From sequence record PP216084: a stretch of DNA of 64,000 bases. One strand, written 5' to 3'. The notes below the pieces were generated by a model. That model did no database searches and had not been told where the DNA came from. It saw nothing but the letters and a program-made list of their open reading frames with translations. Made by a program: the position numbers and the translations under genes. Positions 1,841 to 38,757 of the stretch are shown here, piece by piece; position 1 is the first letter of the stretch; every line of letters starts with the position of its first letter. Source of the stretch: Escherichia phage vB_EcoS_HZ_ZJUN2.

Positions 1841-1842
1841 TT

Positions 1843-5269: not shown

Positions 5270-5284
5270 ATTAGTGTTAACTTT

Positions 5285-5310: not shown

Positions 5311-5370
5311 AACGATTAACATTATGTTAATCATTTAATCCCTTAAATTAAATTAATTGGAGTTTATATC

Positions 5371-5787
5371 ATGACTAACGTTAAAACCGAAAAAGCCGCA
5401 AAATTTTCTTGGAATGAAGAAAACACTCAGCAGGCTGTTACCATGTATCAGCAGTTAATCAACGAAAACGGGCTAGAATTCGCAAATAGCGACGGCTTGA
5501 AAGAGATCGCAAAGGCAGTAGGCGCGGCTTCTCCCGTATCCGTTCGGTCAAAATTGACCAGCGCGAAAGCCTATCAGAAAAGCGACAAGCCGCGCAAAGT
5601 TGGCGGCGGTAGTTCAATCCGCAAGGCTCATTATGTGCGAGTGATTGCAAAACATGCCATCGATTCCGGCATTATCAAGGACGCCGATGATCTGGCAAGC
5701 CTTGAAAGCGCGAAATTAGAAACGTTGGACGTCGTGGCGCAACTATTGGGCGTTGCCGATGAAGTAAAACAAGCCGCAGGCGAATAA
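5371..5787 (+). CDS. Putative DNA-binding protein, 138 aa (possible A2-like candidate)
   Basis: Conserved RBS context; carries the motif EIAKAVGAASPVSVRSKLTSAKAY also seen in 52881-53648 and 57438-57848; size fits a ~15 kDa pre-early protein. Confidence 0.5.
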   Translation: MTNVKTEKAAKFSWNEENTQQAVTMYQQLINENGLEFANSDGLKEIAKAVGAASPVSVRSKLTSAKAYQKSDKPRKVGGGSSIRKAHYVRVIAKHAIDSGIIKDADDLASLESAKLETLDVVAQLLGVADEVKQAAGE

Positions 5788-5794
5788 ATTTAAT

Positions 5795-5816
5795 TAGCGG
5801 GGAATACTCCCCGCTA
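5795..5816 (+). terminator. GC-rich palindromic hairpin after a pre-early cassette
   Basis: tagcgggg-aatact-ccccgcta. Confidence 0.4.
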
Positions 5817-5844
5817 TAATTTCCCTTTAATTGGAGTTATTAAA

Positions 5845-6042
5845 ATGATTTTCTTTCCTACTGAATCGCTCATTCTAGGCTTATTTATTATGGCGGCCTC
5901 GCTATTGTTCGCATATTTTCAAAATGACTTAGATTCATATTATTTTAAACGCAAATCTAAGTTAGCAAAGCGGTTAGGTCTGATTTGTTTTATTGCCGCC
6001 GTTGTTTGTGGTGTTAGTTCTAGCCTGATGCCTATTAGTTGA
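5845..6042 (+). CDS. Small membrane protein, 65 aa, two predicted TM helices
   Basis: Conserved RBS context ccctttaattGGAGtt; hydrophobic segments LILGLFIMAASLLFAY and LGLICFIAAVVCGV. Confidence 0.45.
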   Translation: MIFFPTESLILGLFIMAASLLFAYFQNDLDSYYFKRKSKLAKRLGLICFIAAVVCGVSSSLMPIS

Positions 6043-6054
6043 ATGTTGCAAATT

Positions 6055-6122
6055 ATAACGCCTATTATTCAAGGCGTTATATCTGGCAATATTTGCCAAT
6101 AACAAACGTTTTTTTTTTTTTT
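6055..6122 (+). terminator. Two hairpins followed by a T14 run
   Basis: ataacgcc...ggcgttat (6055-6080), tggcaatatttgccaa (6084-6099), T-run 6107-6122. Confidence 0.5.
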
Positions 6123-6147
6123 AATCCCTTTAATGGAGTTTATTATT

Positions 6148-7818: not shown

Positions 7819-7828
7819 TTAAATTTAT

Positions 7829-7850
7829 AAGCGGGGTATATACCCCGCTT
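7829..7850 (+). terminator. Perfect 22 bp palindromic hairpin after A1-like gene
   Basis: aagcggggtata-taccccgctt. Confidence 0.45.
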
Positions 7851-7883
7851 ATGCCCCTTATTAAATTAATTGGAGTTATAAAC

Positions 7884-8276
7884 ATGAAAAAGCAAAATAT
7901 TCCATTCGATCGCGCTCAATCTTCCATTGTTCTGGTTTATTCAAATGGTGAGCGTTACCACGTCGAGGCCGGTCACGTTGTTGATGATTTAATCGAGTTT
8001 AATGAGGCGCTACAGATCACGACTTTCGCCTATACGCAAGGCCGCGCTAGTAGTCACATAAAGGCCGCAGGCGTTTATGTTGATACGGTGAAGCAGGAAA
8101 CGATTATCATCGACGCCGTAAAAGCTGGCCTAGCGTTTGCAGTTGTCGCACCTTGTCCCGCTTGCCTTGATGATCAGCTATCGAGTGCAAAGGTCTACAT
8201 TTGCGCGGGTATTCGTTCCCATGTATCCGGCGAAGATATTAGTTTTATCGCTGATGCGCTGGCTTATGGTCTTTGA
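7884..8276 (+). CDS. Hypothetical pre-early protein, 130 aa
   Basis: Start set to ATG at 7884 downstream of conserved ttaattGGAGtt; followed by hairpin 8290-8316. Confidence 0.5.
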   Translation: MKKQNIPFDRAQSSIVLVYSNGERYHVEAGHVVDDLIEFNEALQITTFAYTQGRASSHIKAAGVYVDTVKQETIIIDAVKAGLAFAVVAPCPACLDDQLSSAKVYICAGIRSHVSGEDISFIADALAYGL

Positions 8277-8289
8277 TAGTTGATTTATT

Positions 8290-8316
8290 ATTGCCCGCTG
8301 ATAAATAGCGGGCAAT
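8290..8316 (+). terminator. GC-rich hairpin after pre-early cassette
   Basis: attgcccgct-gataaat-agcgggcaat. Confidence 0.4.
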
Positions 8317-8356
8317 GCTGGATAAACTAAATCCCTTTAATGGAGAACGTAACAAA

Positions 8357-9091
8357 ATGAATCAAGTTAAAACGAATATTACCCGTAATTTTCCGCATGT
8401 TTCCCGCGTCATGATTTGGGATCTTGATGGCACTATCGTTAATTCATTCCATCGCGTAGCGCCTTGCTTTGATAGTGAGGGTAATCTAGATTTAAATAAG
8501 TATAAAAATGAGGCGTGCAAACATGATTTAATAATGCAAGATACACTCCTACCGCTTGTTACCTATATGCGCCAATGTATGAATGATGTTAATACGTTAA
8601 ACATTATTTGCACCGCTCGATTAATGAGCAAGTCGGACTATTATTATTTGCGCAAACAAGGATTGCGCGGGCGTGGGGATAGTAATATCCGTGTATTTTC
8701 CCGCGATACACTGCACAAATATTTTGAAGCTGATAAGGTTAGCGAAATATACCACAGCAAGGACGCAGTTTATAAAAGCTACTACTTTGAGTTATTTAAG
8801 CAGTTATATCCGAACGCTGATTTCACGATGATCGACGACCATAAAGGAGTATTGGCGGCGGCGGCATCATATGGATTTAAAACTCTGGACGCGCAAGCCG
8901 TTAATGATATTCTATCGATTGGGGTCACATTGATAGGTGAAACCTTTATCGACGAATCTCTTGAGGATGATAATGATTATCAGTTCCTAGCAGATCGCTT
9001 GCAATTATGTTGGGAAAGTATGACAGAAGAAGAACGCGCAGAATATAGTTGCAGCCCGCAACAATATATTGAGAAATTAAAAGTTGCGTAA
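8357..9091 (+). CDS. dmp: HAD-superfamily phosphatase, 244 aa, probable 5'-deoxyribonucleotidase (Dmp-like)
   Basis: Start set to ATG at 8357 after GGAGAACG RBS; HAD motif I DLDGT, motif II CTAR, C-terminal acidic DD; pre-early location. Confidence 0.5.
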   Translation: MNQVKTNITRNFPHVSRVMIWDLDGTIVNSFHRVAPCFDSEGNLDLNKYKNEACKHDLIMQDTLLPLVTYMRQCMNDVNTLNIICTARLMSKSDYYYLRKQGLRGRGDSNIRVFSRDTLHKYFEADKVSEIYHSKDAVYKSYYFELFKQLYPNADFTMIDDHKGVLAAAASYGFKTLDAQAVNDILSIGVTLIGETFIDESLEDDNDYQFLADRLQLCWESMTEEERAEYSCSPQQYIEKLKVA

Positions 9092-9108
9092 TAATTAAAG
9101 TTGAAATT

Positions 9109-9145
9109 GTTTCACCTTGCAATTAAAATGGTTGCAGGGTGAAAC
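9109..9145. terminator. 14 bp-arm inverted repeat hairpin between convergent transcription units
   Basis: gtttcaccttgcaa-ttaaaatgg-ttgcagggtgaaac (one mismatch). Confidence 0.45.
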
Positions 9146-9256
9146 AGTTAGCATGGTAATAGTAACGGGGGTGGCGGTTAGCAGACTAAGTATTCTCCCC
9201 CAACCCACTGCACCCACCCACGCGTACGTAATCCAAAGAATTTGGCAAAAGTCAAA

Positions 9257-9502
9257 TTAGTGCATAGAATGGTCATCAAACCTGTGTTCTGGTCTAAACT
9301 CACGGAATCTCTTCCGCGACGCCCGAGAACCATCATTCCACTCCAGCTCAAACTCCGCACGTTTCTCATCGAACTTCCGCTCCCTTTCCGCAATCTCCCG
9401 CGATACTTCCGCAATATATTTACGATGCCTGTCGATAGCCGCAGTCATTCCGAAAACTCCCGCGAGTATCCCGGTAATAAAAGCAATTACAATACTAAAC
9501 AT
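9257..9502 (-). CDS. Hypothetical membrane-anchored protein, 81 aa
   Basis: N-terminal TM helix then charged coiled segment; same strand as llp; overlapped by plus-strand ORF judged less likely. Confidence 0.4.
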   Translation of the reverse strand: MFSIVIAFITGILAGVFGMTAAIDRHRKYIAEVSREIAERERKFDEKRAEFELEWNDGSRASRKRFREFRPEHRFDDHSMH

Positions 9503-9605
9503 TATTTATATTCCCGCAACTTACGTTCAATACGAGCTAAGTGGTTATCCAAGACACATTGCCCTAGAATTACCACAACTAATAAAACAATAATTATTAC
9601 TCCCA

Positions 9606-9791
9606 TTAAATCCACCCCGCCATAGCTGCTAACCAAAAGCCTACGAAGACTAGGAATAATACAAAACCAAATCCATAAATATTAATCCACGCTTCATACA
9701 CTTCCCCGCGTCTGTTCTTTCTTTTGTTGCCGTTTGACATGTTTTTCATACTCCCGTAAATGTGGTATCTGGGATATTCTAGAAATTGCAC
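9606..9791 (-). CDS. Hypothetical small protein, 61 aa, C-terminal TM helix (uncertain)
   Basis: GTG start; overlaps alternative ORF 9694-9879 in another frame; cannot be resolved by eye. Confidence 0.25.
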   Translation of the reverse strand: MQFLEYPRYHIYGSMKNMSNGNKRKNRRGEVYEAWINIYGFGFVLFLVFVGFWLAAMAGWI

Positions 9792-9981
9792 GAACCATTA
9801 TAACTGTTCCTATGAGATCCATCATTTCATCAAACCCAGATTCTTCTAGAAGAAATGATGTTCCCATTACATCTTCCATAGTGTCTTGTATGACGTCCTG
9901 AATGATTTCATTAATCGCACTGTGAACTGCTTTGCCCTAGGAGTCATCTCAAGTGGCATTGGTTCCTGGAAGGGCTTCTCC

Positions 9982-10215
9982 TCAGAAAACTCCTTCACAT
10001 GTATTCCCCTCGGTAAAGTAGCTTACTGGAGCCCAGAAAGATCCATAGGCCATGATTGGTGCCACCAGGAACATATCCCCTTTTCTATCAAAAACATTAG
10101 CCTTATATTTCACATGATCTTGTACATAGTAGGCCTCACATTTAATATCTTTAGGCCCAAAAGTAGAGCAAGCCGAAAGAAGTACCACTGCCATAGCTAA
10201 AAATAATTTTTTCAT
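9982..10215 (-). CDS. llp: Lytic-conversion lipoprotein Llp-like, 77 aa precursor
   Basis: Signal peptide with lipobox LLSAC (Cys17), mature 61 aa; divergent from the receptor-binding gene as recalled for T5. Confidence 0.7.
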   Translation of the reverse strand: MKKLFLAMAVVLLSACSTFGPKDIKCEAYYVQDHVKYKANVFDRKGDMFLVAPIMAYGSFWAPVSYFTEGNTCEGVF

Positions 10216-10294
10216 TTACATTCTCCTCTGTTTAATTTATAATACTATTATACAGAATTATATCAATATAGGCAATTAAATTTTTGGAGAACTT

Positions 10295-12217
10295 ATGAGT
10301 TTTTTCGCTGGCAAGCTAAATAACAAATCTATACTCTCTCTACGTAGGGGTAGTGGCGGAGATACTAATCAACATATTAATCCTGACTCTCAGACCATAT
10401 TCCATTCAGATATGCCCCATGTAATTATAACGGAAACTCATTCCACGGGGTTAAGACTAGATCAAGGGGCTGGAGACTACTATTGGTCTGATATGCCTAG
10501 CAGAATCACCCAGTTACATAATAATGATCCTAATAGGGTTGTGCTGACGGAGATTGAGTTCTCAGATGGCTCTAGACATATGCTATCTGGCATGTCTATG
10601 GGGGTAGGGGCTAAAGCGTATGGAATTATAAATCCGCAGGTCATGTCTCAAGGTGGTTTAAAAACACAAATAACAGCTAGTGCTGATCTATCTCTTGATG
10701 TAGGCTATTTTAATAGTGGAACTAGTGGAACTATTCCCCAGAAGCTTAGAGACGGTACTGGATGTCAGCATATGTTTGGCGCCTTTAGTGGACGTAGAGG
10801 GTTTGCATCTAGTGCAATGTATTTAGGGGGTGCCGCTCTCTATAAATCTGCCTGGGACGGTTCAGGATATATTGTGCCTGCTGCAGGATCCATAACTATC
10901 CCTAGCGACTACGTTAGGCATCCCGGAGCTAGAAACTTTGGATTTAACGCCATATATGTTCGTGGTAGATCTTGTAATAGAGTTCTTTATGGTATGGAAG
11001 GGCCCAACTACACCACTGCTGGAGCTGTACATGGGGCGTCGAGTTCAGGGGCTCTTAACTTTATGTCTAATCCTAGCAATCCCTCGGCCCCTAAGTACTC
11101 TGTAGGTTTCGCACGTGCTGATCCCACTAACTATGCGTATTGGGAAAGTATGGGTGATCCGAATGATGCTGCTAATGGGCCCATAGGTATATATAGTGAG
11201 CACCTCGGTATTTATCCATCTAAAATTACCTGGTATGTTACTAACTTAGTGTATAATGGTTCAGGATATAGTATTGATAGTGGGCTATTTACTGGCAATG
11301 ATATTAAACTTAGTCCAAGAGAATTTATTATTAAAGGTATTAACGTTAATAATACATCGTGGAAGTTTATTAACTTTGTTGAGAAAAACTTTAATGTAGG
11401 GGGCAGAGCTGATTTTCGTGATGTTGGGTGTAACTTGAGTATGGGTTCCCCCTCTACTGGAGTTTCTGGAATAGCCACTTTTGGATTACCAACTGCGGAG
11501 AGTAATAACACTCCTAGTATTAAGGGGGGTAACGTTGGTGGTTTAAATACTAATGTAGTTAGTATTTATAACTTTTTACCTTCAGCATCTTGGTATGTTT
11601 CTAGTGATCCCCCAAAAATAGGCAGCAATTATGGGGATGTTTGGAGTGAGAATCTTTTACCTTTAAGGTTACTAGGAGGTAGCGGAAGTACTGTACTATC
11701 TGGTAACATAGTATTTCAGGGTAATGGTTACGTGCATGTTGGTACCGTGGGACTGGATCTTAATAGTAGTAGAAATGGTGCAATTGTATGTACTATGGAG
11801 TTCCTAGATGACACATGGTTGTCTGCCGGTGGTATTGGCTGCTTTAATCCTACGGAGATGCTATCTAAAGGTGCAGAATACGGAGATAGTAGGTTCAGAA
11901 TGGGTGGCAATACTATTGATAAAAAGCTACACCAAATATTATCTTTGCCTGCGGGGGAATACGTACCATTTTTTACTATTAAAGGTACTGTAGTAAACGC
12001 TTGTAAATTACAGGCTGCTGCGTACAACCCAACTCCGTACTGGGTATCTGGGTTGCCCGGATCCGTAGGTCAAACAGGTTACTATACTCTAACATATTAT
12101 ATGAGAAATGATGGAAATAATAATATCTCTATTTGGTTAGAATCCTCTATGAGCAATATAATTGGCATGAAAGCATGCTTACCAAATATTAAACTTATAA
12201 TTCAACGCCTTACCTAA
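10295..12217 (+). CDS. oad: Receptor-binding tail protein pb5-like, 640 aa
   Basis: Length equals recalled T5 pb5; Gly/Ser/Asn-rich beta-type composition; adjacent to llp. Confidence 0.65.
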
Positions 12218-12227
12218 AGGAGGAAAT

Positions 12228-12710
12228 ATGGCAAATGATGTATTAGTACCAGATCTTATGTCCCCTGAAGGGATGGATGTGATTGAAGCTTATTTACAGT
12301 GTGGCAGCGATGTGCCTTCTGCCGCACGTAGTCTTGGGATGTCCGAAATTGCTTTCCGAGATATTATGAATCGTAGTGAAGTTAAGAACTACTTAAATGA
12401 TATTTTTATGGAGAGTGGTTTCCGTAATAGGGATCGTTTATTTGGTGTTCTGGATGAAGTTATTAAGCGTAAGCTGGAGGAACTGGAAGAAACTGGCATG
12501 GGTTCTGACCAAGATATTATGGATATTCTCTGGAAAGCACATAAAATGAAAATGGAGGAAATGAAGATGATGGTAGAATTGGAGAAAGTGAAGGCAGCAG
12601 CCCGTACTCCAGCTAACCAGACCAACATTCAGAATAATATTATTGCTGGAGCCGGGGATCAAAACTACATGGACTTAATTACTTCTCTAGCTACTGGAGG
12701 TAAGAAGTAA
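12228..12710 (+). CDS. Putative terminase small subunit, 160 aa
   Basis: AAGGAGGAAAT RBS; HTH-like [17 protein letters not shown]; directly upstream of terminase large subunit. Confidence 0.5.
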
Positions 12711-14026
12711 TGGAAGTATCAAGACCCTACGTTAATACGGTAGATGTTATTGATTTCGGAATAGATAAACGTTTCTTTCGTCTACCCGTTTCAGGAATAC
12801 TAGCACAAGAAGGTATTACACCTAATGGTCCTCAAATAGCAATTATTAATGCTCTAGAAGACCCTAGACATCGTTTTGTAACGGCGTGTGTATCACGCCG
12901 TGTAGGTAAATCCTTCATCGCGTATACCCTTGGGTTCCTAAAATTGCTGGAACCTAACGTGAAGGTGTTGGTAGTTGCTCCTAACTACTCACTGGCCAAC
13001 ATCGGATGGTCTCAGATTCGTGGTCTTATTAAAAAGTACGGCCTACAAACCGAACGTGAGAACGCTAAAGATAAAGAAATTGAGTTAGCTAATGGTTCTC
13101 TGTTTAAACTAGCTTCCGCGGCGCAGGCTGACTCCGCCGTTGGACGTTCATATGATTTTATCATCTTTGACGAAGCGGCAATTTCCGATGTGGGTGGTGA
13201 TGCCTTCAGGGTTCAGTTGCGTCCTACCCTAGATAAACCTAATTCTAAGGCTCTATTTATCTCTACTCCTCGTGGTGGTAACTGGTTTAAAGAGTTTTAT
13301 GCCTATGGGTTTGATAATACGTTGCCTAACTGGGTATCTATTCATGGTACATATCGTGATAACCCACGTGCTGATCTAAATGACATCGAAGAAGCACGTC
13401 GTACAGTTAGTAAAAACTACTTCCGCCAAGAATACGAAGCTGACTTCTCTGTATTCGAAGGTCAGATATTTGATACCTTTAATGCTATTGATCATGTTAA
13501 AGACCTTAAAGGTATGCGTCACTTCTTTAAAGATGATGAAGCATTCGAAACATTGCTTGGCATTGACGTTGGTTATCGTGATCCTACAGCAGTTCTTACT
13601 ATTAAATATCATTATGATACGGATACTTACTATGTATTAGAAGAATACCAGCAGGCAGAGAAAACCACAGCTCAGCATGCTGCATATATTCAGCACTGTA
13701 TAGATCGTTATAACGTAGATCGTATCTTCGTTGACTCCGCGGCTGCCCAGTTCCGCCAGGACTTAGCTTATGAACATGAAATTGCATCAGCTCCAGCTAA
13801 AAAATCTGTCCTAGACGGTCTAGCATGCTTGCAAGCGTTATTCCAGCAGGGTAAGATTATTGTAGACGCTTCATGTTCCTCATTAATCCATGCATTGCAG
13901 AACTATAAATGGGATTTCCAAGAAGGTGAAGAAAAATTATCACGTGAAAAACCACGTCATGATGCTAACTCTCACCTTTGTGATGCTCTGCGCTATGGAA
14001 TTTACTCTATTTCCCGTGGTAAATAA
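12710..14026 (+). CDS. Terminase large subunit, 438 aa
   Basis: Walker A-like VSRRVGKS, Walker B DFIIFDEAA, C-terminal nuclease domain; precedes portal. Confidence 0.85.
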   Translation: MEVSRPYVNTVDVIDFGIDKRFFRLPVSGILAQEGITPNGPQIAIINALEDPRHRFVTACVSRRVGKSFIAYTLGFLKLLEPNVKVLVVAPNYSLANIGWSQIRGLIKKYGLQTERENAKDKEIELANGSLFKLASAAQADSAVGRSYDFIIFDEAAISDVGGDAFRVQLRPTLDKPNSKALFISTPRGGNWFKEFYAYGFDNTLPNWVSIHGTYRDNPRADLNDIEEARRTVSKNYFRQEYEADFSVFEGQIFDTFNAIDHVKDLKGMRHFFKDDEAFETLLGIDVGYRDPTAVLTIKYHYDTDTYYVLEEYQQAEKTTAQHAAYIQHCIDRYNVDRIFVDSAAAQFRQDLAYEHEIASAPAKKSVLDGLACLQALFQQGKIIVDASCSSLIHALQNYKWDFQEGEEKLSREKPRHDANSHLCDALRYGIYSISRGK

Positions 14027-14053
14027 ATAAGTATAGGATGGGATACTACTCAG

Positions 14054-14578
14054 TTGGTATCCCATTCCTACATTTTAAAATCCCCTTTACAAATTCGATA
14101 CGATTATGTATACTATATTCATACAGTTGAGGAGAACACTATGGCAAGCAATGTAAAATATAAACGCGATGCTATATCCCTTATGAGAGACGGAATAAAA
14201 AGTCAATATAAAAAAGACTCTCAATGTGCTATCTGCGGTTGTGCTGAAGAATTAGAGCTTCATCATTACCATACGGTGTCTCTACTAGTTAAAAAATTTG
14301 CTAAAGAACTCCAATTGGATTTCACTGACGAAGAAATAGTCCTTTCAAATAGGACGGCATTCTATGATCGATATAGGCATGAGCTAGTAGAAGACACTGT
14401 TACCCTTTGTGTACACCATCACCAATTATTACATAAGGTTTACACAAAAGAACCTCCTTTATTTTCTGCTAATAAGCAAAAAGTGTGGGTTCAAAAGCAG
14501 AAAGACAAATTACAGAATCCTCAAGAAAAGACACAAGTCAAGACTGAAACAAAATCAGGATTCGCAAGGTTCTTATAA
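14054..14578 (+). CDS. HNH homing endonuclease, 174 aa
   Basis: CAICGC...HHYH...CVHHH zinc/HNH motifs; free-standing between terminase and portal. Confidence 0.7.
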   Translation: MVSHSYILKSPLQIRYDYVYYIHTVEENTMASNVKYKRDAISLMRDGIKSQYKKDSQCAICGCAEELELHHYHTVSLLVKKFAKELQLDFTDEEIVLSNRTAFYDRYRHELVEDTVTLCVHHHQLLHKVYTKEPPLFSANKQKVWVQKQKDKLQNPQEKTQVKTETKSGFARFL

Positions 14579-27789: not shown

Positions 27790-30635
27790 AGAAAATACTA
27801 GATAGTGCTAGAAACTACTTAAAAAATAATAGCAGAATAAAAACTGCTAGTCTAATTTCCCTAGAATTACCTGGCTCTACTGGTACTAGTACTGCTTTTA
27901 TTTATTTAACTGATTATTTTAGAGATGTACTATATAATGGTATTTTGTACCAGGCTGGTAAGGTTAAGTCCATTAGCACACATAAACAAAATAGAGATTT
28001 ATCTATTGGCAGTCTATCTTTTACTATTACAGGTACAGCGCAGGATGAAGTACTGAAACTAGTGCAGAATGGTGTGTCCTTTTTAGATAGACTAGTATCA
28101 ATCCACCAAGCAATTATTACAGAGGATGGTTCTATTTTACCTGTAGACCCAGACACAAATGGCCCATTATTATATTTTAGAGGGAGAATTACCGGCGGGG
28201 GTATTAAGGACAACATTAGTACTTCTGGGGTTGGAACCTCTACAATTACTTGGAATTGTTCTAACCAATTCTATGATTTTGATAGGGTTAATGGTAGATT
28301 TACTGATGATGCTTCTCATAGGGGGCTTGAGGTTGTAGCAGGACAATTAGTTCCATCTAACGGGGCTAAAAGACTTGAGTACCAAGAAGATTATGGGTTC
28401 TTTCATGCCAATAAAAGCATCTCTATTCTAGCAAAGTATCAGGTACAGGAAGAAAGATACAAGCTAAAGTCTAAGAAAAAACTATTTGGTTTATCTAGAA
28501 GCTATAGTCTTAAAAAGTATTATGAGACTGTTACTAAAGAAATAGATATAGATTTTAACCTTGCTGCTAAGTATATACCAGTAGTTTATGGTGTACAGAA
28601 AATACCGGGAATACCTATTTTTGCGGATACGGAACTACACAATCCTAATATAGTTTACGTAGTATATGCTTTTGCTGAAGGAGAGATAGACGGTTTTCTT
28701 GACTTTTCCTTCGGGGATAACCCTATGATTTGTATGGACTCTAATGATAGCTCTGCTAGAACCTGTTTCGGTGTTAAAAAAGTAGCAGGAGACACCATGC
28801 AAAGAATAGCATCAGGAGTATCTTCTAGTAGTCCTTCTGTGCATGGTCAGGAATATAAGTATAATGATGGTAATGGTGATATAAGGATTTGGACTTACCA
28901 TGGAAAAGCTGATCAAACTGCTTCTGAAGTATTAGTAGACATAGCGAAAGAACGTGGGTTCTACCTTCAAAATATGAACGGTAATGGGCCCGAGTACTGG
29001 GATACTAGGTATAAGCTACTAGATACTGCATACGCGGTAGTACGCTTTACTATTAATGAAAATAGAACTGAGATCCCAGAAGTTAGTGCTGAGATTCAGG
29101 GTAAGAAGATAAAAATCTATCATTCTGATGGTAGAGTAACTGCTAATAGCACTAGTTTAAATGGTATTTGGCAAACACTTGATTACTTAACTTCAGATAG
29201 ATACGGTGCTAACATTACTATTGATCAGTTTCCTCTTCAACAATTGATACAGGAAGCTGCTATCCTAGATATTATAGATGAATCTTACCAAGTATCCTGG
29301 CAGCCATACTGGAGATACGTTGGGTGGACTGATCCATTAGCAGAAAATAGACAAATAGTACAAATGAATACTATTCTAGATACATCTGAATCAGTATTTA
29401 AAAACGTGCAAGGTTTACTAGAATCCTACGGTGGGGCTATTAACAACTTATCTGGCCAGTATAGGATTACTGTAGAAAAATACTCTAATACTCCATTAGA
29501 GATTAATTTTCTGGATACTTATGGTGATTTAGAGCTATCAGATACTACTGGTAGAAATAAATTCAACTCAGTTCAAGCATCTATCGTAGATCCTGCTCTT
29601 AGCTGGAAAACTAACTCTATTACCTTTTACAACTCTAAATATAAAGAGCAAGATAAAAATTTAGACAAAAAATTACAATTATCTTTTGCAAATATAACTA
29701 ACTACTATACTGCTAGAAGTTTTGCAGACAGAGAGCTTAAAAAATCTAGATATTCTAGAACCCTCTCATTTTCTTTACCATACCAATTCATTGGTATTGA
29801 GCCTAATGATGCTATTGCATTTACATACGACCGTTATGGATGGGATAAGAAATACTTTTTAGTAGATGAAGTAGAAAACTCTAGAGAAGGAAAGATAAAC
29901 GTCACCCTACAGGAATATGGAGAAGATGTATTTATCAACTCTGATCAAGTAGATAATAGCGGTAATGATATACCAGATATTAGTAACAACGTTCTTCCTC
30001 CTAGAGATTTTAAATATACTCCTACACCCGGTGGTTTAGTTGGTTCTATAGGAAAAAATGGTGAGTTATCTTGGCTTCCAAGCTTAACTAATAACGTAGT
30101 TTATTACTCTATCGTGCATTCCGGTCATGCTGAGCCTTATATTGTGCAGCAACTAGAAACAAATCCCAATGAACGCATGATCCAAGAGATAATTGGAGAA
30201 CCTGCAGGTTTAGCAATATTTGAAATAAGGGCTGTGGATATAAACGGTAGAAGAAGTTCTCCAGTAACATTATCTATAGAACTTAACTCTGCTAAAAACC
30301 TAAGCGTAGTGTCTAATTTTAGAGTAACTAATACGGCCTCTGGGGATGTAACTGAGTTTGTCGGCCCAGATGTAAAACTAGCTTGGGATAGGATACCGGA
30401 AGAAGATATAATAGAAAGTATATTCTATACTCTGGAGATCTATGATTCTCAGAATAGAATGCTAAGAAGTGTACGCATTGAAAATCAGTATACTTATGAC
30501 TATTTATTAATGTATAATAAGGCAGATTTTGCTCTTCATAACAGTGGTGCTCTAGGGATCAATAGAAAACTATATTTTCGTATTAGAGCAGAAGGAGATG
30601 ATGGAGAACAGTCTGTGGAGTGGGCATCCATTTAA
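27786..30635 (+). CDS. Baseplate hub / tail tip protein pb3-like, 949 aa
   Basis: Position after distal tail protein; length equals recalled T5 pb3. Confidence 0.65.
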   Translation: MKKILDSARNYLKNNSRIKTASLISLELPGSTGTSTAFIYLTDYFRDVLYNGILYQAGKVKSISTHKQNRDLSIGSLSFTITGTAQDEVLKLVQNGVSFLDRLVSIHQAIITEDGSILPVDPDTNGPLLYFRGRITGGGIKDNISTSGVGTSTITWNCSNQFYDFDRVNGRFTDDASHRGLEVVAGQLVPSNGAKRLEYQEDYGFFHANKSISILAKYQVQEERYKLKSKKKLFGLSRSYSLKKYYETVTKEIDIDFNLAAKYIPVVYGVQKIPGIPIFADTELHNPNIVYVVYAFAEGEIDGFLDFSFGDNPMICMDSNDSSARTCFGVKKVAGDTMQRIASGVSSSSPSVHGQEYKYNDGNGDIRIWTYHGKADQTASEVLVDIAKERGFYLQNMNGNGPEYWDTRYKLLDTAYAVVRFTINENRTEIPEVSAEIQGKKIKIYHSDGRVTANSTSLNGIWQTLDYLTSDRYGANITIDQFPLQQLIQEAAILDIIDESYQVSWQPYWRYVGWTDPLAENRQIVQMNTILDTSESVFKNVQGLLESYGGAINNLSGQYRITVEKYSNTPLEINFLDTYGDLELSDTTGRNKFNSVQASIVDPALSWKTNSITFYNSKYKEQDKNLDKKLQLSFANITNYYTARSFADRELKKSRYSRTLSFSLPYQFIGIEPNDAIAFTYDRYGWDKKYFLVDEVENSREGKINVTLQEYGEDVFINSDQVDNSGNDIPDISNNVLPPRDFKYTPTPGGLVGSIGKNGELSWLPSLTNNVVYYSIVHSGHAEPYIVQQLETNPNERMIQEIIGEPAGLAIFEIRAVDINGRRSSPVTLSIELNSAKNLSVVSNFRVTNTASGDVTEFVGPDVKLAWDRIPEEDIIESIFYTLEIYDSQNRMLRSVRIENQYTYDYLLMYNKADFALHNSGALGINRKLYFRIRAEGDDGEQSVEWASI

Positions 30636-32692
30636 TGATTTCGAATAATGCACCAGCCAAAATGGTCTTAAATAGTATAATGACTGGATATACAATGGCG
30701 TATGTCCAGCACTCTATATATACTGACTATGACGTTATTGGTAGATCTTTTTGGTTAAAGACTGGAGAAAGTATAGATAGACGTGATTATACTGGTATAG
30801 ATACTTTCTTCGTAATGATTAATAATCTAACCCCTTCAACCTATTATGAGATTCAAGGGGCTTTTTATGATTCTATTATAGATTCTGAGCTACTAGAGGC
30901 TAAAATTGGTATCATTCTATCTAATGATACCAATTTTAAGACAAAAGAGAAGCCAACAATTGTTGCAGCAAGATCTGAGTCAGAACCTGTGGATGTTGGG
31001 GTAGGCGCACCGATAGTTGTTGTTGAAACAACTGGTGAAGCAAGCTACTGTACTATTGAGTTAAAAAGTACAGCTTCTGAAGACAGTCCTTGGACTAAGT
31101 ATTACATTGGGGCTTTAGGTTCTACTATTAAATTTGGCGGAGTTCCTATCGGAGATTATAAGATCAGAATATCTGGTCAAGTAACTATGCCTGATGGTGT
31201 TACAGTTGATTCTTCTGGGTATTATGAATTCCCTAATATTTTAACAGTAGCTTATAATTTTGTTCCTCCTACCGCACCGATTAATATTATTTTTAAAGCT
31301 GCACGAATTGCTGATGGTAAAGAACGCTATGATGTTAGAATTGAGTGGGATTGGGAACGCGGTGGTGGTGCTAATGTTCGTGAGTTCTTGGTTACATATA
31401 TAAATTCTGAAGAATACGCTAAGACTGGCTGGGCTAAAGCTCAAAAGATAAACGTTGGTGCTGCCAGAGCTGCAACAATTATATCATTCCCATGGAAAGT
31501 TGAGCATACTTTTAAGGTATCATCAATTGCCTGGGGACCAAATAAGCAGGATATAACAGAATCAGCTCCGGTAACATTTATATTGAATGAAGATACTCCT
31601 CTAGACAACAGCTTTGTCAATGAGACTGGTATTGATGTTAACTACGCCTTTATTAAGGGTAGCATGAAAGATGGAGAAATCTGGAGACAGACATTCTTAA
31701 TCGATGCAGCTACTGGTGCTATTAACATTGGTCTGCTAGATGAAGAGGGAAAAGCACCTATTTCTTTTGATCCTATAAACCGTGTTGTTAACGTTGATGG
31801 TAAAGTAATTACTAGAGATATTAATGCTGCGAACTTTATCATGACTAACTTATCTGGTAAGGATAATCCAGCAATTTACACTCAAGGTAAATCTTGGGGA
31901 GATAATAACTCCGGTATTTGGATGGGTATGGATAATACCTCTGCCAAAGCTAAGTTAGACATTGGTAATGCCACACAGTGGATTCGTTATGATGGTGATG
32001 TGCTACGTATTTCTAGTGGAGTAGTTATTGGAACTCCTAATGGCGACGTAGATATTGGTACTGGGATGCAGGGTAAACAAACAGTATTTGTTTATAAGTT
32101 AGCAACATCTCTACCCGCTAAACCACTAGAACAAGATTACCCACCTCCTGGTTGGTCTAAAACCCCACCTAACCGCACAGATATGACTCAAAATATTTAT
32201 GCGACTACAGGTACACTTGACCCAGTAACTAATAAGCTACTTACGGGTACTAGCTGGTCTGACGTAGTTCAATGGAGTGGTACTGAAGGTACTATAGGTG
32301 CAGATGGGCAAAGAGGTCCTGGCATGTATTCTTTAGGTATTCCAGGTCTTGGAGGCTGGGATGATGGACAAGCTAACGCCTTCTTCCAGAATAACTTTGG
32401 TAGTCCACCAGTTAGATATGATGTATTGACTGAGTTTAATAGTAATGCTCCGCAATCTGCATTTACTCGTCAATGGAATGGTTCCAGTTGGATTAACCCT
32501 GCAATGGTTCTTCATGGCAACATGATTGTTAATGGAACTGTGACTGCTGATAAGATTGTGGCAGGAAATGCCTTCTTATCACAAATCGGTGTTAATATAA
32601 TCTATGATAGAAATGCCGCGTTATCAGGGAACCCTGAAGCATACTACAAGATGAAGATAGACCTAAATAGTGGGTATATCCATATAAGGTAA
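30620..32692 (+). CDS. Central straight fibre protein pb4-like, 690 aa
   Basis: Synteny; repeated beta-rich segments consistent with fibronectin-like tandem domains. Confidence 0.55.
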
Positions 32693-32697: not shown

Positions 32698-33120
32698 ATG
32701 AGTACAGAAAACCGAGTTATTGATATTATTATTGATGAAAAAGTACCTTATGGTCTTATCATGCAATTTATGGATGTTGATGATAGTGTATATCCCCCAA
32801 CAGAAGTTCCTGTTAACTTAACCGGATATTCACTCCGAGGAACTATTAAGTCTAGCTTAGACGAGAACGCCGAAGTTCTAGCTAACTTTAAAACTCGTGT
32901 TATTGATGCTGCTCAAGGTGCTGCTGCAATTAGTCTTTCCGTTGCAGACGTTACTAATATTGGTGAAAAAGCATCTAAAGAACGTGATAAGTATAACCCA
33001 AGACAACGTTTTGCTGGTTATTATGATATCCTAATGACTCGTGATGTAATTGGCTCTGAAGTCAGTTCTTTCCGTATTATGGAAGGTAAAGTATACATCA
33101 GCGATGGAGTAACTCAATAA
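32698..33120 (+). CDS. Collar protein p132-like, 140 aa
   Basis: Synteny (immediately upstream of fibre genes); stop overlaps fibre start. Confidence 0.5.
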
Positions 33121-36100
33121 TGGCACTTAAAACTAAAATTATTGTACAGCAGATCCTGAACATAGATGACACTACAACTACTGCTAGTAAGTATCCTAAA
33201 TATACAGTAGTTTTAGGTAATTCTACTAGTTCTATTACTGCTGGTGAATTAACTGCTGCTGTAGAGGCCGCTGCAGGATCCGCTGCTGCTGCTAAAAATT
33301 CTGAAATAGCAGCTAAAGACTCTGAAAATAAAGCTAAAGATTCAGAAATTCAGGCAGGTATTCATGCTGATGCTTCTGAGGCTTCAGCAACCCAGTCTGC
33401 TGCTTCTGCTGCTGAATCTGAAAAACAAGCTAACTTATCTCAAAGTAGTGCTGAAAACTCTGCTGCTTCTGCCTTAGAATCTAAAAATTTTAGAGACGCT
33501 GCCGCACTTGCTGCTCAAAATGCAGAGCAGAGTAAGATTTTAGCAGATCAAGCTCAAAGAGCGGCAGAAGCTGCCCAGACAGCGGCTGAAACAGCTAGGA
33601 CTGGCGCTGAAACAGCAAAAGCTGGAGCAGATGCTGCTGCTACAACTGCTGGAGAACACGCTGCTGCTGCGAAACAATCAGAATTAAATGCTAAAACTTC
33701 TGAGACTAATGCTGCTAGCTCTGCTACAGAAGCGGGTGACAAAGCTATTGATGCTACTACTGAAGCAGATCGTGCTAAAGCTGAAGCAGATCGTGCAACT
33801 CAGATTGTTGATAGTAAACTTGATAAGGTAGATATTTCTGGCTTCATCAAAGTTTATAAGACTAAAGCAGAAGCCGATGCTGATGTTGGAAGTCGTGTAC
33901 TAGGGGAGAAGATCCTAGTATGGAACCAAACTGATTCAAAGTACGGATGGTATAAAGTAGCTGGAACTGCTGAAGCTCCTGTTTTAGAGCTAGTAGAGAC
34001 AGAGCAAAAGCTAGTTTCTATTAACAACGTTCGTGCAGATGACGCAGGTAACGTACAGATTACTCTTCCTGGTGGTAACCCCTCTCTATGGCTGGGTGAA
34101 GTTACTTGGTTCCCTTATGATAAGGATTCAGGTGTTGGCTACCCTGGTGTTCTTCCTGCTGATGGTCGTGAAGTTCTTCGAGTAGACTATCCAGATACTT
34201 GGGAAGCTATTGAGGCTGGCTTAATCCCTTCTGTTACCGAAGAACAATGGCAAGCAGGTGCAACTCTCTACTTCTCCACTGGTAATGGTACTACTACTTT
34301 CCGTCTACCTGATATGATGCAGGGGCAGGCTTTCCGTGCACCTACTAAGGGGGAAGAAGATGGTGGTGCTATCAAGGAACAAATCCCTTATATCACTACT
34401 GTGAATGGAATTAGTCCTGCTGACGATACTGGAGCTATTAAGCTCCCTTACGTGGCGATGGTTAATGGAACTATTATACCAGATGAGAATGGAAACCTAG
34501 CACTAGGTAACGTTGTTACTAAGAATGTTTGGAATGGCACTAATGGAGAAGTTCTGCTTCGCGGTGCTTTTGGTTTAGGTGGTGTTGGTATTACATTAAA
34601 TGAACCAGATCTAGTATCCTTCTTTAAAGCTATGAGGGCCTTTGGTTCTGGGTATTATCGCAACGATACTGGAGTTGAAGGCTTGCCCGCGTATTCTGCA
34701 GGTTTCTACTCTAGAACAGCAGATACTAACTCATTTATCTGTTCTGGGTATGGTAGTGCCGTAGTATTTGCAGCTGCAATCAATGATGCTATTTTAGATA
34801 GTGAAAACCCTATTGTTCATACTAATATTCTTTATGGTACTGTTAATAAGCCGGATCTAAATGGTGATACTAATGGAGTTCTTAGTGTTGGTAAAGGTGG
34901 TACTGGAGCTACCACAGTTAGTGCTGCTAAGAAAGCTTTAGAAGTTGGTGGAGTTTTCTGTAATGATAGCCCAGCTGATGCTGCTTTCAACTCTCTCCAG
35001 AGCCCTGCTGGTATTCATGAGTTTAGACTAACTAATGAGGGGTTATGGGGTGTATGGAAGAAGGAGGAAGAAACGGTAGCTGCGTTGCCTATAGGCTCTG
35101 GAGGTACGGGAGCTACTGATAAAGTTGCTGCACGTGATAACTTTGGATTGGGGTATCATAATACTCCTAGATTTACTGGGGTAGATCTATCTAACCCCGA
35201 AAGTATACCCTATAGTGGTATCCTTAACCTAAACAGGCTAAAGGAATCTGATCAAAATGTTATTACTCAGGGTAGAATCTATCATGAGATGCAATCAGGC
35301 TTGGCTAAAATTACCCTTCATATTAACAATACTTTAAATAGTGCAAACCGTTATATACAGTTTGTAGAAAATGGTGATTTAACTGGGCTACAGAATGTAC
35401 ATGCAGTTAACTACCTTGCAAGTGGTTATGTTACAGCCCAGGGATGGATCAAAGGCGGGGAAAAAATCTATATACAGCAAACAGGTGGTGGCAACAGGGA
35501 AATTAGTATGGCTGTACCTACTCCTAATAATGACCCTGGTGCTGGTTCTTGGGTTAACTTACTACAGGGTAACTGGTATAACGGTTACTGGCAAGTAGGT
35601 GGTATCCGTGGTAGTGGACAAGATTTAACCTGTCTTCGCATTGGTGTTAATAACGCTGGTACTGATTGGAAGGAATTCAATTTCTACAACACCTATGGTG
35701 GCCATATAACTGCTCCAAAAGGTTTTCGTGGTCAGTGTACTCAAGGATATTGGGGCTTAGAGTGGGATTACATGGGCGCTCCATTTCATGCAGAGTCTGT
35801 AACAAATAATGATGGTGGTTGGTCTCCTATAGTATCGGGAGGTTCTTTATCCGCTGGTGGATATCATTTAAGAATAGGCCTTGGCTGTATCTCTAATGGT
35901 AACACTGCATGGCCTGACGCTGCTCTTAAGTTAAATGGGGATGGCCAGTTCCACCGTTCATTCAACTTTAGAACAAACGGTAGCGTGTATACTTGGGGTA
36001 ATGATCCTTGGGGAGGTAACTATGACTTTGCTATGAACCCTTCTTCAGATAGAGATATCAAAAGAGATATTAATTATGATGATGGGTTAGCCTCCTATGA

Positions 36101-36470
36101 GAATATAAAGCAATTTAAACCTACCACATTTATCTATAAACTAGATAAGTATAATCGTGTACGCCGTGGTGTTATTGCTCAAGATCTTTATAAAATTGAC
36201 CCTGAGTACGTAAAACTGGTTCCTGGTTCCCCTATCATAGAAACTCCAGAACATCATTGCTGTGACGAAAAAACTGAGAACGTAGAAAGTAAGATCATTG
36301 ACTATGAGGATGATACTTTAGCTCTGGATATTAACCCAATTGCTATTGATACAGCTTTAGCAGTTCGTTACTTATCTCTAAAGTTCGAAGAGTCCCAGGA
36401 AGAACTGAAGTCCGTTAAGGCAGAACTGGCAGAGTTAAAAGCTCTAGTAGCCACTCTGGTAAATAAGTAA
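33120..36470 (+). CDS. L-shaped tail fibre protein (LtfA-like), 1116 aa, with C-terminal intramolecular chaperone domain
   Basis: N-terminal Ala/Ser/Glu coiled-coil; repeated GGTGAT motifs; C-terminal SDRDIKRDI...RRGVIAQDL segment typical of self-cleaving chaperone. Confidence 0.75.
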   Translation: MALKTKIIVQQILNIDDTTTTASKYPKYTVVLGNSTSSITAGELTAAVEAAAGSAAAAKNSEIAAKDSENKAKDSEIQAGIHADASEASATQSAASAAESEKQANLSQSSAENSAASALESKNFRDAAALAAQNAEQSKILADQAQRAAEAAQTAAETARTGAETAKAGADAAATTAGEHAAAAKQSELNAKTSETNAASSATEAGDKAIDATTEADRAKAEADRATQIVDSKLDKVDISGFIKVYKTKAEADADVGSRVLGEKILVWNQTDSKYGWYKVAGTAEAPVLELVETEQKLVSINNVRADDAGNVQITLPGGNPSLWLGEVTWFPYDKDSGVGYPGVLPADGREVLRVDYPDTWEAIEAGLIPSVTEEQWQAGATLYFSTGNGTTTFRLPDMMQGQAFRAPTKGEEDGGAIKEQIPYITTVNGISPADDTGAIKLPYVAMVNGTIIPDENGNLALGNVVTKNVWNGTNGEVLLRGAFGLGGVGITLNEPDLVSFFKAMRAFGSGYYRNDTGVEGLPAYSAGFYSRTADTNSFICSGYGSAVVFAAAINDAILDSENPIVHTNILYGTVNKPDLNGDTNGVLSVGKGGTGATTVSAAKKALEVGGVFCNDSPADAAFNSLQSPAGIHEFRLTNEGLWGVWKKEEETVAALPIGSGGTGATDKVAARDNFGLGYHNTPRFTGVDLSNPESIPYSGILNLNRLKESDQNVITQGRIYHEMQSGLAKITLHINNTLNSANRYIQFVENGDLTGLQNVHAVNYLASGYVTAQGWIKGGEKIYIQQTGGGNREISMAVPTPNNDPGAGSWVNLLQGNWYNGYWQVGGIRGSGQDLTCLRIGVNNAGTDWKEFNFYNTYGGHITAPKGFRGQCTQGYWGLEWDYMGAPFHAESVTNNDGGWSPIVSGGSLSAGGYHLRIGLGCISNGNTAWPDAALKLNGDGQFHRSFNFRTNGSVYTWGNDPWGGNYDFAMNPSSDRDIKRDINYDDGLASYENIKQFKPTTFIYKLDKYNRVRRGVIAQDLYKIDPEYVKLVPGSPIIETPEHHCCDEKTENVESKIIDYEDDTLALDINPIAIDTALAVRYLSLKFEESQEELKSVKAELAELKALVATLVNK

Positions 36471-36513: not shown

Positions 36514-38757
36514 ATGTCACGTAATTTAATGCCTAAATCTGGCGCAATGGCGCCTTACGTAGTAGTTAACAGAGACGCTGCAGTTGCAGGAGTATTCTCT
36601 GTTGATGGAGAGGCTGGTGCTGTTGTACTAACCTCCAAGTATCTTCAAATATCTAACTATACTATAGATAAAGAAGAATTAAATACTCGTTTAACTGGTA
36701 TTGATAGTTCCATTCAGAACAATGTAGAGGCTATTGGCAATATTAATACTGCAATTGGTAGTATTAATAGTACTCTCAATACTAAAGCTGCTAAAGGTGC
36801 TAATAATGATATTACAGAATTAAATGCGCTTACTAAGGCTATTACTATAGCTCAGGGTGGGACAGGTGCTAGCACTGCGGAAAATGCTAGAGTTAACTTA
36901 GAGCTTAATAGGTTTAAGCAGTTCCCCGGTGAAACTCTAGTATATAGTCCTTCTGCGACAAACTATCTTACTGTTGGTGAAGGTACTACATGGGGAGTTT
37001 ATAGCACAGCTTCTGGTACATTTATACCTTTACCTATTCAATCTGGTGGGACAGGTGCTAGTACTCCTGCGGAGGCCTTAACTAAGCTGCTAGATGGTAA
37101 ACCTCTAGCATTAGCCGCCGATGGTCAAGCACCTTATGATGCTGTTACTGTTCGTCAGCTAGCTAATATCTCAGGAGGAGGTGGTGCTAGCATGAGTGGA
37201 GTTATGAATAATCGTATCGGTGCTGTTGAATGGTTCAATGGTAACCGTACTAAACTGCCAGCCGGCTATATACCAGCAGATGGTCAGTTAGTTAGCCGTA
37301 CTGATGCTAAAACAGCAGATCTATGGTCTGCGGTATCTAGTGGTCTATTTTACTCTGTTTCCGACGCTTTATGGATTAATAGTGGGGATCCTGTTAGACC
37401 CTGCGCTTGGAGAGCTTCCTACTCTACTGGTGATGGTTCTACTACTTTCCGAGTTCCAGATCTTAACGGTACTCAGTTAAATAGTATTAAGCATTTATTT
37501 TTATCTGGTAGTTCAGGTGCTACTAATGAACCTTCGGCTAATCAGGTGTGGAATCAGGTTGCCCCTAATATTACTGGTAATTTCTACACTCATGGTAGTA
37601 ACGCAGATGCTGCAGATGCCATGGGGGCTTTTTATTTAAATGCTCAAGATACAGGTAGTTCATTTAATATAGGAGGTACAGATAAGGGAGACCACTTAGG
37701 ATTTTCGGCCTCTAGAAGTAGCAAGACATACGGTCGTGGTGTGGCTTACCAACCAGACCCTGGTGGTACCAGCCCTATTGGTGATCTATACCCTAACCAT
37801 GCAGCCGGTATTTGGATTATCCGTGCTAACGGTTCTTTTAACGCTGCTAGTACAGACTTTTCTTCTATTAATGCTGATGCCTCGGCTCCTGCAGTTAGTA
37901 CAACTGTATTAGGTGGTAAACTAACCTCTCAATACAGAGTGGGTGCAACAGATGCGTATAGGATGCGTATGTATGCTCAAGGTGCCTATGCGCGAAACTT
38001 AGTGGGTGTTATAGCTGTAGAAAACCAATTAGCAAGTGAGATAGATGTGGCCCACTTTAATTTCGGGTTAGATGGTGCAATTAGGTTGGGAAAAGCTATA
38101 GGAGGTTCTTCAACTTCTTTAGCTTATGGGTACACTCCTTTTAGAGCACAAGATTGGTGGAATACTTCCCCCTATGGAGCTTTTGTCCCTATTGTTGGTG
38201 GAGGTACAGGAGGGCCTGGAGGCGCTTGGAGAAGCTATACGGCTCTAGGTACACTTACTATGGGTAGTGATATTAACACTCACCCAAATGCAATGCTTAC
38301 ACAATGCTGGGATTACAATCTTAGTACTGGGGAATCCCCTAGTGGTAACACTGTTAGAAATACTATCTTTAATGGTACTAGTTATGATATTACTTTTGGT
38401 GATAATGCAGGTACTGTTAACTATATATTTAGTAAGTCTCCAATTTCAGATCGTAATAAGAAAAAGGATATTGAATCCTTAAGCACTTCCATTGCTCTGG
38501 AGAATATTAAGCAGATGGAGTATATCTCATTTAAGTACATATATGATAAAGGGAATCAGGTACGTAGAGGTTTTATCGCGCAACAACTAGAGGAGATTGA
38601 TAGTCAATATGTAAGAAAATACGAATCTTCCGACGGTTCTACTTCTCTGGCCCTAGATGAGAATGTGCTTCTATTAGATGCTTTGGCGGCAATTCAAAAT
38701 CTAAGTAATCAGATAGAGGAGCTAAAACTTCAGATAGCTGAGTTAAAGGCTAAGTAA
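36514..38757 (+). CDS. Second tail fibre protein (LtfB-like), 747 aa, with C-terminal intramolecular chaperone domain
   Basis: GGTGAST motifs at two sites; C-terminal SDRNKKKDI...RRGFIAQQL segment paralogous to the preceding fibre. Confidence 0.7.
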   Translation: MSRNLMPKSGAMAPYVVVNRDAAVAGVFSVDGEAGAVVLTSKYLQISNYTIDKEELNTRLTGIDSSIQNNVEAIGNINTAIGSINSTLNTKAAKGANNDITELNALTKAITIAQGGTGASTAENARVNLELNRFKQFPGETLVYSPSATNYLTVGEGTTWGVYSTASGTFIPLPIQSGGTGASTPAEALTKLLDGKPLALAADGQAPYDAVTVRQLANISGGGGASMSGVMNNRIGAVEWFNGNRTKLPAGYIPADGQLVSRTDAKTADLWSAVSSGLFYSVSDALWINSGDPVRPCAWRASYSTGDGSTTFRVPDLNGTQLNSIKHLFLSGSSGATNEPSANQVWNQVAPNITGNFYTHGSNADAADAMGAFYLNAQDTGSSFNIGGTDKGDHLGFSASRSSKTYGRGVAYQPDPGGTSPIGDLYPNHAAGIWIIRANGSFNAASTDFSSINADASAPAVSTTVLGGKLTSQYRVGATDAYRMRMYAQGAYARNLVGVIAVENQLASEIDVAHFNFGLDGAIRLGKAIGGSSTSLAYGYTPFRAQDWWNTSPYGAFVPIVGGGTGGPGGAWRSYTALGTLTMGSDINTHPNAMLTQCWDYNLSTGESPSGNTVRNTIFNGTSYDITFGDNAGTVNYIFSKSPISDRNKKKDIESLSTSIALENIKQMEYISFKYIYDKGNQVRRGFIAQQLEEIDSQYVRKYESSDGSTSLALDENVLLLDALAAIQNLSNQIEELKLQIAELKAK

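Follow-up and report, generated by a model that had tools for sequence, protein, structure and literature searches.

The pair of divergent genes at positions 9,982 to 12,217 of the 64,000-nucleotide stretch analysed here (the window; Escherichia phage vB_EcoS_HZ_ZJUN2, sequence record PP216084) almost certainly represents the host-recognition and receptor-blocking module of bacteriophage T5, of the FhuA type. Based on homology, we predict that the terminal receptor of this phage is FhuA and that the lipoprotein Llp should exclude FhuA-dependent phages. Both the receptor and the exclusion phenotype are predicted because the two gene products are close homologues of the T5 pair and have low identity to the pair that acts on BtuB. 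As judged from its sequence, the gene pair is already known: it is an orthologue of the T5 system, which has been characterised both structurally and genetically.

Organization of the locus

The llp gene (9982..10215, minus strand) encodes the 77 aa precursor of a lytic-conversion, or superinfection-exclusion, lipoprotein. The pb5 gene, also named oad (10295..12217, plus strand), encodes a 640 aa protein that corresponds to the monomeric receptor-binding protein (RBP) that tips the central straight fibre and is assigned to the FhuA-binding type. Both assignments are based on the open reading frames, on homology to the T5 proteins and on profile matches. A preliminary description of this DNA had placed a 77 aa lipoprotein reading frame back to back with a 640 aa one at exactly these coordinates, and both are indeed there, in divergent orientation and with 79 bp between them.

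The 640 aa product matches the PHROG profile phrog_4815 ("receptor binding tail protein") over its full length with E = 9.2e-256. The 77 aa product matches phrog_1119 ("Cor superinfection exclusion protein", the Llp/Cor family), again over its full length, with E = 1.4e-18. Neither of them matched a family in Pfam. Since the matches to PHROGs and to sequences from PDB are strong, the empty Pfam result reflects missing models and not missing homology, and the family assignment is therefore taken from PHROGs, PDB sequences and GenBank annotation. Codon comparison with T5 gave dN/dS = 0.034/1.16 for pb5 (a ratio of about 0.03) and 0.014/0.36 for llp (about 0.04). Such ratios indicate strong purifying selection on both genes. 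Because of these ratios, together with the PHROG and PDB matches, we consider llp and pb5 to be real genes and not chance reading frames.

The surroundings of the pair are those of a T5-like phage. Directly after pb5 follow the gene for the terminase small subunit, terS (12228..12710, plus strand; identified by its reading frame and by gene order, in the position of T5 sciB), and the reading frame of terL (12710-14026). The order pb5, sciB/terS, terL is common to T5, vB_EcoD-Elw (Elw) and DT57C, and according to the BASEL paper (PMC8594841) the RBP gene invariably lies upstream of the terminase genes. Over a longer distance, the window shares with T5, Elw and DT57C a pre-early region with A1 and dmp, followed by small membrane-protein genes, llp, pb5, terS, terL, a nicking endonuclease gene and the portal gene. 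A megablast search with positions 9500-12800 matched 439 phage records, all of them T5-like (Tequintavirus and relatives), and the annotations beneath the matches are receptor-binding tail protein, lytic conversion lipoprotein and the small and large terminase subunits. We assign the source of the window to a T5-like phage (Tequintavirus, Demerecviridae) on this evidence.

The 79 bp between the two genes (10216..10294) form a putative divergent control region, which, according to consensus matches, holds a ribosome-binding site for each gene and two sigma-70-like promoters placed back to back. On the plus strand the consensus scan found TTTACA-17-TATAAT at 10215-10243, with 11 of 12 positions matching; on the minus strand it found TTGCCT-17-TATAAT at 10275-10247, with 10 of 12. 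The llp/pb5 spacer of T5 has the same length (79 bp), and the spacer of the window corresponds to the region annotated in AY587007 as a putative late promoter, T5P42, for pb5 and a putative early promoter, T5P41, for llp. Expression of Llp early and of pb5 late would fit these promoters, whose assignment combines consensus matches with annotation transferred from T5. On the minus strand, a scan with the terminator consensus found nothing beyond the end of llp.

The receptor-binding protein

The proposal that the 640 aa reading frame matches the T5 receptor-binding protein, originally made from its size and position, is fully borne out by alignment: 600 of the 640 residues are identical to T5 pb5 (93.8%), end to end and without gaps. 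A search against PDB sequences returned T5 pb5 (8b14_B and 8a8c_B) with E = 0. Several phages carry still closer relatives of the protein, namely SUT_E1520 and SUT_E520 (98.0% identity), SP15 (97.7%), Elw (97.5%), FFH1 (97.3%) and S130 and S131 (97.2%), with oldekolle at 94.7%. An identical pb5 is absent from the phage collection, where the best match is at 98.0%.

What is known about T5 pb5 makes it possible to ask where the 40 substitutions fall. The tips of two of its loops, Gln115 in L1 and Phe170 in L2, touch the plug of FhuA, and loop L4 comprises residues 570-590 (PMC9586334). Gly166 is the site of the classical oad mutation G166W, and the loop 571-580 is also named in this context (bioRxiv 10.1101/2022.09.22.509047). 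Gln115, Gly166, Phe170 and the whole loop 570-590 are the same in the window protein as in T5, and the substitution nearest to these contacts is I116V, beside the L1 tip residue Gln115. Conservation of contacts is judged here on the few residues named in the main texts, whereas PISA assigns 63 residues to the FhuA-pb5 interface; Degroux et al. describe this interface as large and tolerant of changes (bioRxiv 10.1101/2022.09.22.509047). The pb4-binding subdomain, to which 93 positions are assigned, contains five of the 40 substitutions, and there are clusters at 188-200 and 242-265.

These clusters bear on a reading which we regard as unlikely, though not remote: the pair would descend from that of T5, with the 40 substitutions having retuned pb5 to a variant FhuA (for instance that of Salmonella, or of particular E. 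coli lineages), so that the phage would remain FhuA-dependent and have a host range measurably unlike that of T5. The closest pb5 alleles, 96-98% identical, do belong to phages whose isolation hosts were E. coli O157:H7 and Salmonella (SUT_E520, SP15, Elw, FFH1, S130/S131 and the Kenya-K phages), and the half of pb5 that varies among homologues is the distal, FhuA-binding half (bioRxiv 10.1101/2022.09.22.509047). However, the named contact residues are all kept, an interface that large and that tolerant speaks against retuning by such changes, and over the whole pb5 gene a dN/dS of 0.03 offers no hint of diversifying selection. Host range in T5-like phages depends, moreover, mainly on the lateral fibres and the O-antigen (PMC4728585, PMC8594841). 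A caution for the main reading comes from Degroux et al., who report several strains which have nearly identical FhuA and are nevertheless resistant to T5 (bioRxiv 10.1101/2022.09.22.509047); the receptor allele alone is no predictor of host range. In our opinion, an essentially unaltered T5-type pb5 is the better description of this gene product.

The lipoprotein

Llp begins with MKKLFLAMAVVLLSAC... and, according to a rule-based pattern check, has the features of a lipoprotein precursor: a positively charged N-terminus, then a hydrophobic core and a lipobox L-S-A-C with Cys16, followed by Ser at +2. The signal peptide would be MKKLFLAMAVVLLSA (residues 1-15), and the mature protein would begin directly after it with CSTFG, that is, MKKLFLAMAVVLLSA is followed by CSTFG. 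By the same check, Ser at +2 is compatible with sorting to the outer membrane. Hence the signal peptide and lipobox proposed in the preliminary description stand, while its length of 61 aa for the mature lipoprotein needs a correction: the predicted mature protein, Cys16-Phe77, has 62 aa, and the smaller number omits the lipidated cysteine.

Against T5 Llp, 75 of the 77 residues are identical (97.4%), the two changes being M31V and S52A; the PDB sequence of T5 Llp, 8a60_B, is matched with E = 6e-50, and 7qjf_A is matched as well. The Llp of Elw is identical, both as protein (77/77) and as DNA (234/234). In T5 Llp, an intramolecular disulfide joins Cys11 and Cys58 and the segment Ile39-Trp46 occupies the position otherwise held by the switch helix of FhuA (PMC9586334). 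The cysteines of the mature window protein are at positions 1, 11 and 58, as in T5, and its Ile39-Trp46 segment, IMAYGSFW, is the same. M31V and S52A are both conservative and both lie outside the disulfide and this segment.

It may be imagined that llp is present without contributing to exclusion, either as a conserved remnant or in some other role. We consider this very improbable, given that the reading frame is intact, that it has exactly the DNA sequence of the Elw gene, that nothing beyond two conservative changes outside the disulfide and Ile39-Trp46 separates it from T5 Llp, that its dN/dS is 0.04 and that the promoter and ribosome-binding region are conserved.

The name of the matched PHROG raises a further point. 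T1, phi80 and FhuA-dependent siphophages related to them encode Cor proteins (PHROG 1119), which are likewise small lipoproteins of the outer membrane, contain an intramolecular disulfide and inactivate FhuA. Identity between T5 Llp and the Cor proteins is only about 20%, and the relationship of Llp and Cor has been discussed (PMC9586334). By its near-identity to T5 Llp, the window protein is assigned as a T5 Llp orthologue and not as a Cor of the T1/phi80 type.

Receptor type

The RBPs of T5-like phages fall into three clusters, with BtuB, FepA or FhuA as the receptor, and the cluster predicts the terminal receptor (BASEL paper, PMC8594841). It is this rule, together with the placement of the window protein in its cluster, that leads us to the FhuA type for pb5. 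The placement is not a matter of degree, since identity values to the window pb5 are discontinuous across the phage collection. There are 29 records at 86% or more, which include T5 and S131; the next group consists of three records at about 64% (among them slur09 and HK6); Klebsiella phages follow at about 39%, and a large remainder lies at about 28-37%. Complexes of both T5 Llp and T5 pb5 with FhuA have been solved (PMC9586334).

DT57C, which is experimentally BtuB-dependent (PMC4728585), served as the representative of the BtuB type in direct alignment: its Llp (88 aa) is 28% identical and its pb5 (586 aa) 37% identical to the window proteins. For the FepA type we used S124, whose RBP is probably FepA-binding (PMC8594841) and whose pb5 has about 30% identity to that of the window. 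On these values we rejected both a BtuB and a FepA type for Llp and pb5. The alignment to T5 on the one side and to the BtuB types on the other, which had been proposed as a check, thus points clearly to the FhuA type, with 97.4% (Llp) and 93.8% (pb5) against 28% and 37%. Low identity to characterised Llp/pb5 pairs had been named beforehand as what would speak against the proposal, and what we find is clearly the opposite.

That the pair nevertheless belongs to another receptor class, either BtuB (as in BF23, DT57C and EPS7) or FepA (as in H8), with Llp blocking another TonB-dependent transporter, could be argued from the use of BtuB by most T5-like phages (PMC8594841) and from the fibre genes of the window, which are closest to those of HdH2, ECOP18 and NBEco001, phages whose pb5 is not among the T5-type matches; but we give this reading hardly any credence, in view of the low identities and differing lengths (88 and 586 aa) of the DT57C proteins, the value of about 30% for S124 pb5 as opposed to 97% (Llp) and 94% (pb5) for the FhuA-binding T5 proteins, and the independent recombination of fibre and RBP modules, which makes fibre relatives uninformative on the receptor.

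Lateral fibre genes and pb4

The virion partner that would carry pb5, the central straight-fibre protein pb4, is encoded at 30620..32692 (plus strand) and is recognised by the Pfam family PB4_spike (E = 1e-198) and by three PB4 Fn3 domains. It is followed on the same strand by the gene for p132/LtfC (32698..33120), a 140 aa collar protein through which the L-shaped fibres are attached; this protein aligns over its whole length with T5 ORF125/p132 and whose equivalent in the same position is annotated in DT57C (ltfC), NBEco001 and HdH2.

After pb4 and p132/ltfC there are two large fibre genes instead of the single T5 pb1 (ltf). The first (33120..36470, plus strand) encodes an LtfA-like L-shaped tail-fibre protein of 1116 aa, and the second (36514..38757, plus strand) an LtfB-like second tail-fibre protein of 747 aa, both assigned by homology. 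An intramolecular chaperone domain of the Peptidase_S74 family lies at the C-terminal end of both, at residues 976-1032 and 645-700, respectively. The LtfA-like protein is 71% identical to the L-shaped fibre protein of oldekolle, 51% to DT57C LtfA and 31% to T5 pb1, and its gene is about 91% identical in DNA to those of ECOP18 and NBEco001. For the LtfB-like protein, identity is 94.8% with the second fibre protein of vB_EcoS_HdH2, 83.9% with its Sw2 counterpart and 44% with DT57C LtfB.

The preliminary description had stressed the combination of the llp/pb5 pair with a two-fibre module unlike the single pb1 of T5. The two genes are real; their combination with this pair is not unusual. Fibres built from a pair of proteins (LtfA plus LtfB) were described in DT57C and DT571/2 (Golomidova et al. 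2016, PMC4728585), and fibres of one or of two polypeptides are known alternatives in T5-like phages (PMC4728585, PMC8594841). In the DT57C type the fibre is branched, LtfB being joined to LtfA, and has two O-antigen specificities (PMC4728585). A T5-type pb5 occurs together with two fibre genes in oldekolle (1095 and 695 aa) and FFH1 (816 and 580 aa), and SP15 has a T5-type pb5 with several fibre ORFs. We therefore rejected the idea that the pairing of two fibre genes with a T5-type RBP module is new. Elw and SUT_E1520, which are among the closest phages by pb5, have a single 922 aa fibre gene. In our opinion, the two lateral fibre genes are a separate, exchangeable module, which most likely serves O-antigen binding, and they leave the reading of pb5 and Llp unchanged.

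Comparison with known systems

The closest parallel is the Llp/pb5 module of T5 itself, for which the structures 8A8C, 8B14, 8A60 and 7QJF are available (van den Berg et al. 2022, PMC9586334; Degroux et al., bioRxiv 10.1101/2022.09.22.509047). The lengths (77 and 640 aa), the divergent arrangement, the 79 bp spacer and the location directly upstream of terS/terL are all shared, and every residue named in the structural work is kept in the window proteins. The differences from T5 consist of the two substitutions in Llp and the 40 in pb5, of a synonymous divergence that is very high for pb5 (dS about 1.2) compared with llp (0.36), and of the lateral fibres, for which T5 has one gene (pb1, 1396 aa) and the window phage two.

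The pair formed by Hrs (pb5) and Llp in BF23 and DT57C, which acts on BtuB, is related in design: it has the same position and divergent arrangement and the same logic of an RBP accompanied by a lipoprotein that blocks the cognate receptor (PMC4728585). DT57C also shares with the window an LtfA/LtfB/LtfC fibre locus. It differs in its receptor, BtuB, as well as in the identities and lengths of Llp and pb5 given above.

The T5-type relatives of the window phage (Elw, SUT_E1520/E520, SP15, FFH1, S130/S131, the EC100 group, the Kenya-K phages and oldekolle) have pb5 proteins 94.7-98.0% identical to its own, whereas its fibre genes are closest to those of phages outside this group, namely HdH2 for LtfB and ECOP18 and NBEco001 for LtfA. 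None of these three is found among the best 36 pb5 matches (at least 39% identity). Such modular exchange of RBP and fibres is expected in the T5-like group. Taken at its sequence, the genome is at most a new mosaic of known modules, with an RBP/Llp module of the Elw/SP15/SUT lineage and fibres closest to HdH2, ECOP18 and NBEco001.

It is possible, though in our opinion somewhat doubtful, that the combination of this particular pb5 allele (with matches of 98.0% at most and its clusters of substitutions at 188-200 and 242-265) with an HdH2-like LtfB and an ECOP18/NBEco001-like LtfA gives a host range which is new for T5-like phages. If this were true, the phage might, for example, carry out FhuA-dependent infection of an O-serotype which has so far been reached only by phages with another pb5 type. 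No new mechanism would be involved.

Proposed mechanism

Given the T5-type assignment, the working of the locus can be described by transfer from T5. The pb5 protein would be made late and would be carried, as a monomer, by the pb4 spike at the end of the central fibre. Its loops would enter the extracellular lumen of the barrel of FhuA, the outer-membrane ferrichrome transporter, and reach the plug. This binding, at a ratio of 1:1, would be essentially irreversible and would commit the virion to DNA ejection, or trigger it.

Llp would be transcribed in the opposite direction from the early promoter. The precursor is predicted to be exported, lipidated on Cys16 and cut by signal peptidase II, and Ser at +2 would direct it to the outer membrane, in whose inner leaflet it would face the periplasm. 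There it would bind FhuA on its periplasmic side, with the plug in a non-native conformation, and as a consequence the extracellular loops EL7 and EL8 would fold inward over the pb5 site. This "reverse allostery" has been described for T5 Llp, which in this way blocks superinfection and prevents the loss of progeny on cell debris (PMC9586334). Infected cells and their debris would, by analogy, no longer adsorb the window phage or other FhuA-dependent agents, such as T5, T1, phi80, colicin M and albomycin.

Implications

The locus opens no new question, as the mechanism has been structurally solved for T5 and reading the receptor off the RBP cluster is already routine. Its value is one of annotation, and consists in a high-confidence prediction of FhuA as the terminal receptor of this phage. 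It follows from the prediction that cells which are infected, or which express llp, should be immune to the window phage and to other FhuA-dependent agents. The locus also helps to anticipate resistance through loss of fhuA, and in phage cocktails cross-resistance would be kept down if this phage were paired with phages that depend on BtuB or FepA.

Separate histories of llp and pb5

The two genes of the receptor module, llp (9982-10215, minus strand) and pb5 (10295-12217, plus strand), do not diverge equally from their relatives. We compared window positions 9982-12217 codon by codon with positions 36874-39109 of phage vB_EcoD-Elw (Elw). The llp genes are 100% identical in DNA, with none of 78 codons different, while the pb5 genes differ in 96 of 641 codons (dS 0.23). 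The same comparison with phage T5 gives a dS of 1.16 for pb5 and 0.36 for llp. Given such unequal divergence from both Elw and T5, the module's two genes have separate histories, which suggests that a recombination boundary lies in the 79-bp spacer between them or close to it. Golomidova et al. made a like proposal for BF23 and DT57C (PMC4728585).

Surroundings of the module

The lowest conservation in the neighbourhood is found at 9500-9925, on the downstream side of the minus-strand llp. By blastn, 9526-9790 is 77-81% identical to T5 and Elw, and no match was returned for about 9791-9883 against Elw or about 9791-9922 against T5. Between its ORF149-like and ORF151-like genes, the window showed no homologue of T5 ORF150 (63 aa; Elw_00178 in Elw).

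Nearer the start of the window, positions 1-9200 (about 9.2 kb) are the counterpart of the T5 pre-early and terminal-repeat region, including an A1-like gene (6133-7818) and a dmp-like gene (8315-9091). The region aligns in reverse orientation to the Elw right terminal repeat, and it holds a minus-strand ORF of 331 aa (2386-3381) whose DNA shares about 83% identity with Elw_00189, a hypothetical gene. Given the content of this region and its reverse alignment, a physical genome end probably lies close to the window start.

On the other side of the module, blastn coordinates jump between window 14026-14140 and T5 10513-11251. Here T5 carries, between terL and the nicking endonuclease gene, a segment of about 740 bp with a hypothetical 'YomD' gene that lacks a counterpart in the window; Elw and DT57C likewise have no annotated gene in that interval. 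Presence or absence of putative homing endonucleases in T5-like genomes has been noted (PMC8594841).

Fibre locus

The fibre locus (33120-38757) holds an LtfA-like gene (33120-36470, plus strand) and an LtfB-like gene (36514-38757, plus strand); the latter's product also bears a likeness to fibres of phiEco32-like podophages. The nearest relatives of the two genes are not the same. LtfA is about 91% identical in DNA to ECOP18 and NBEco001, and its protein is 71% identical to that of oldekolle. For LtfB, identity is highest with HdH2 (94.8%), followed by Salmonella phage Sw2 (83.9%), and reaches only 67% with ECOP18. Judging from these identities, there seems to be mosaicism within the fibre locus itself.
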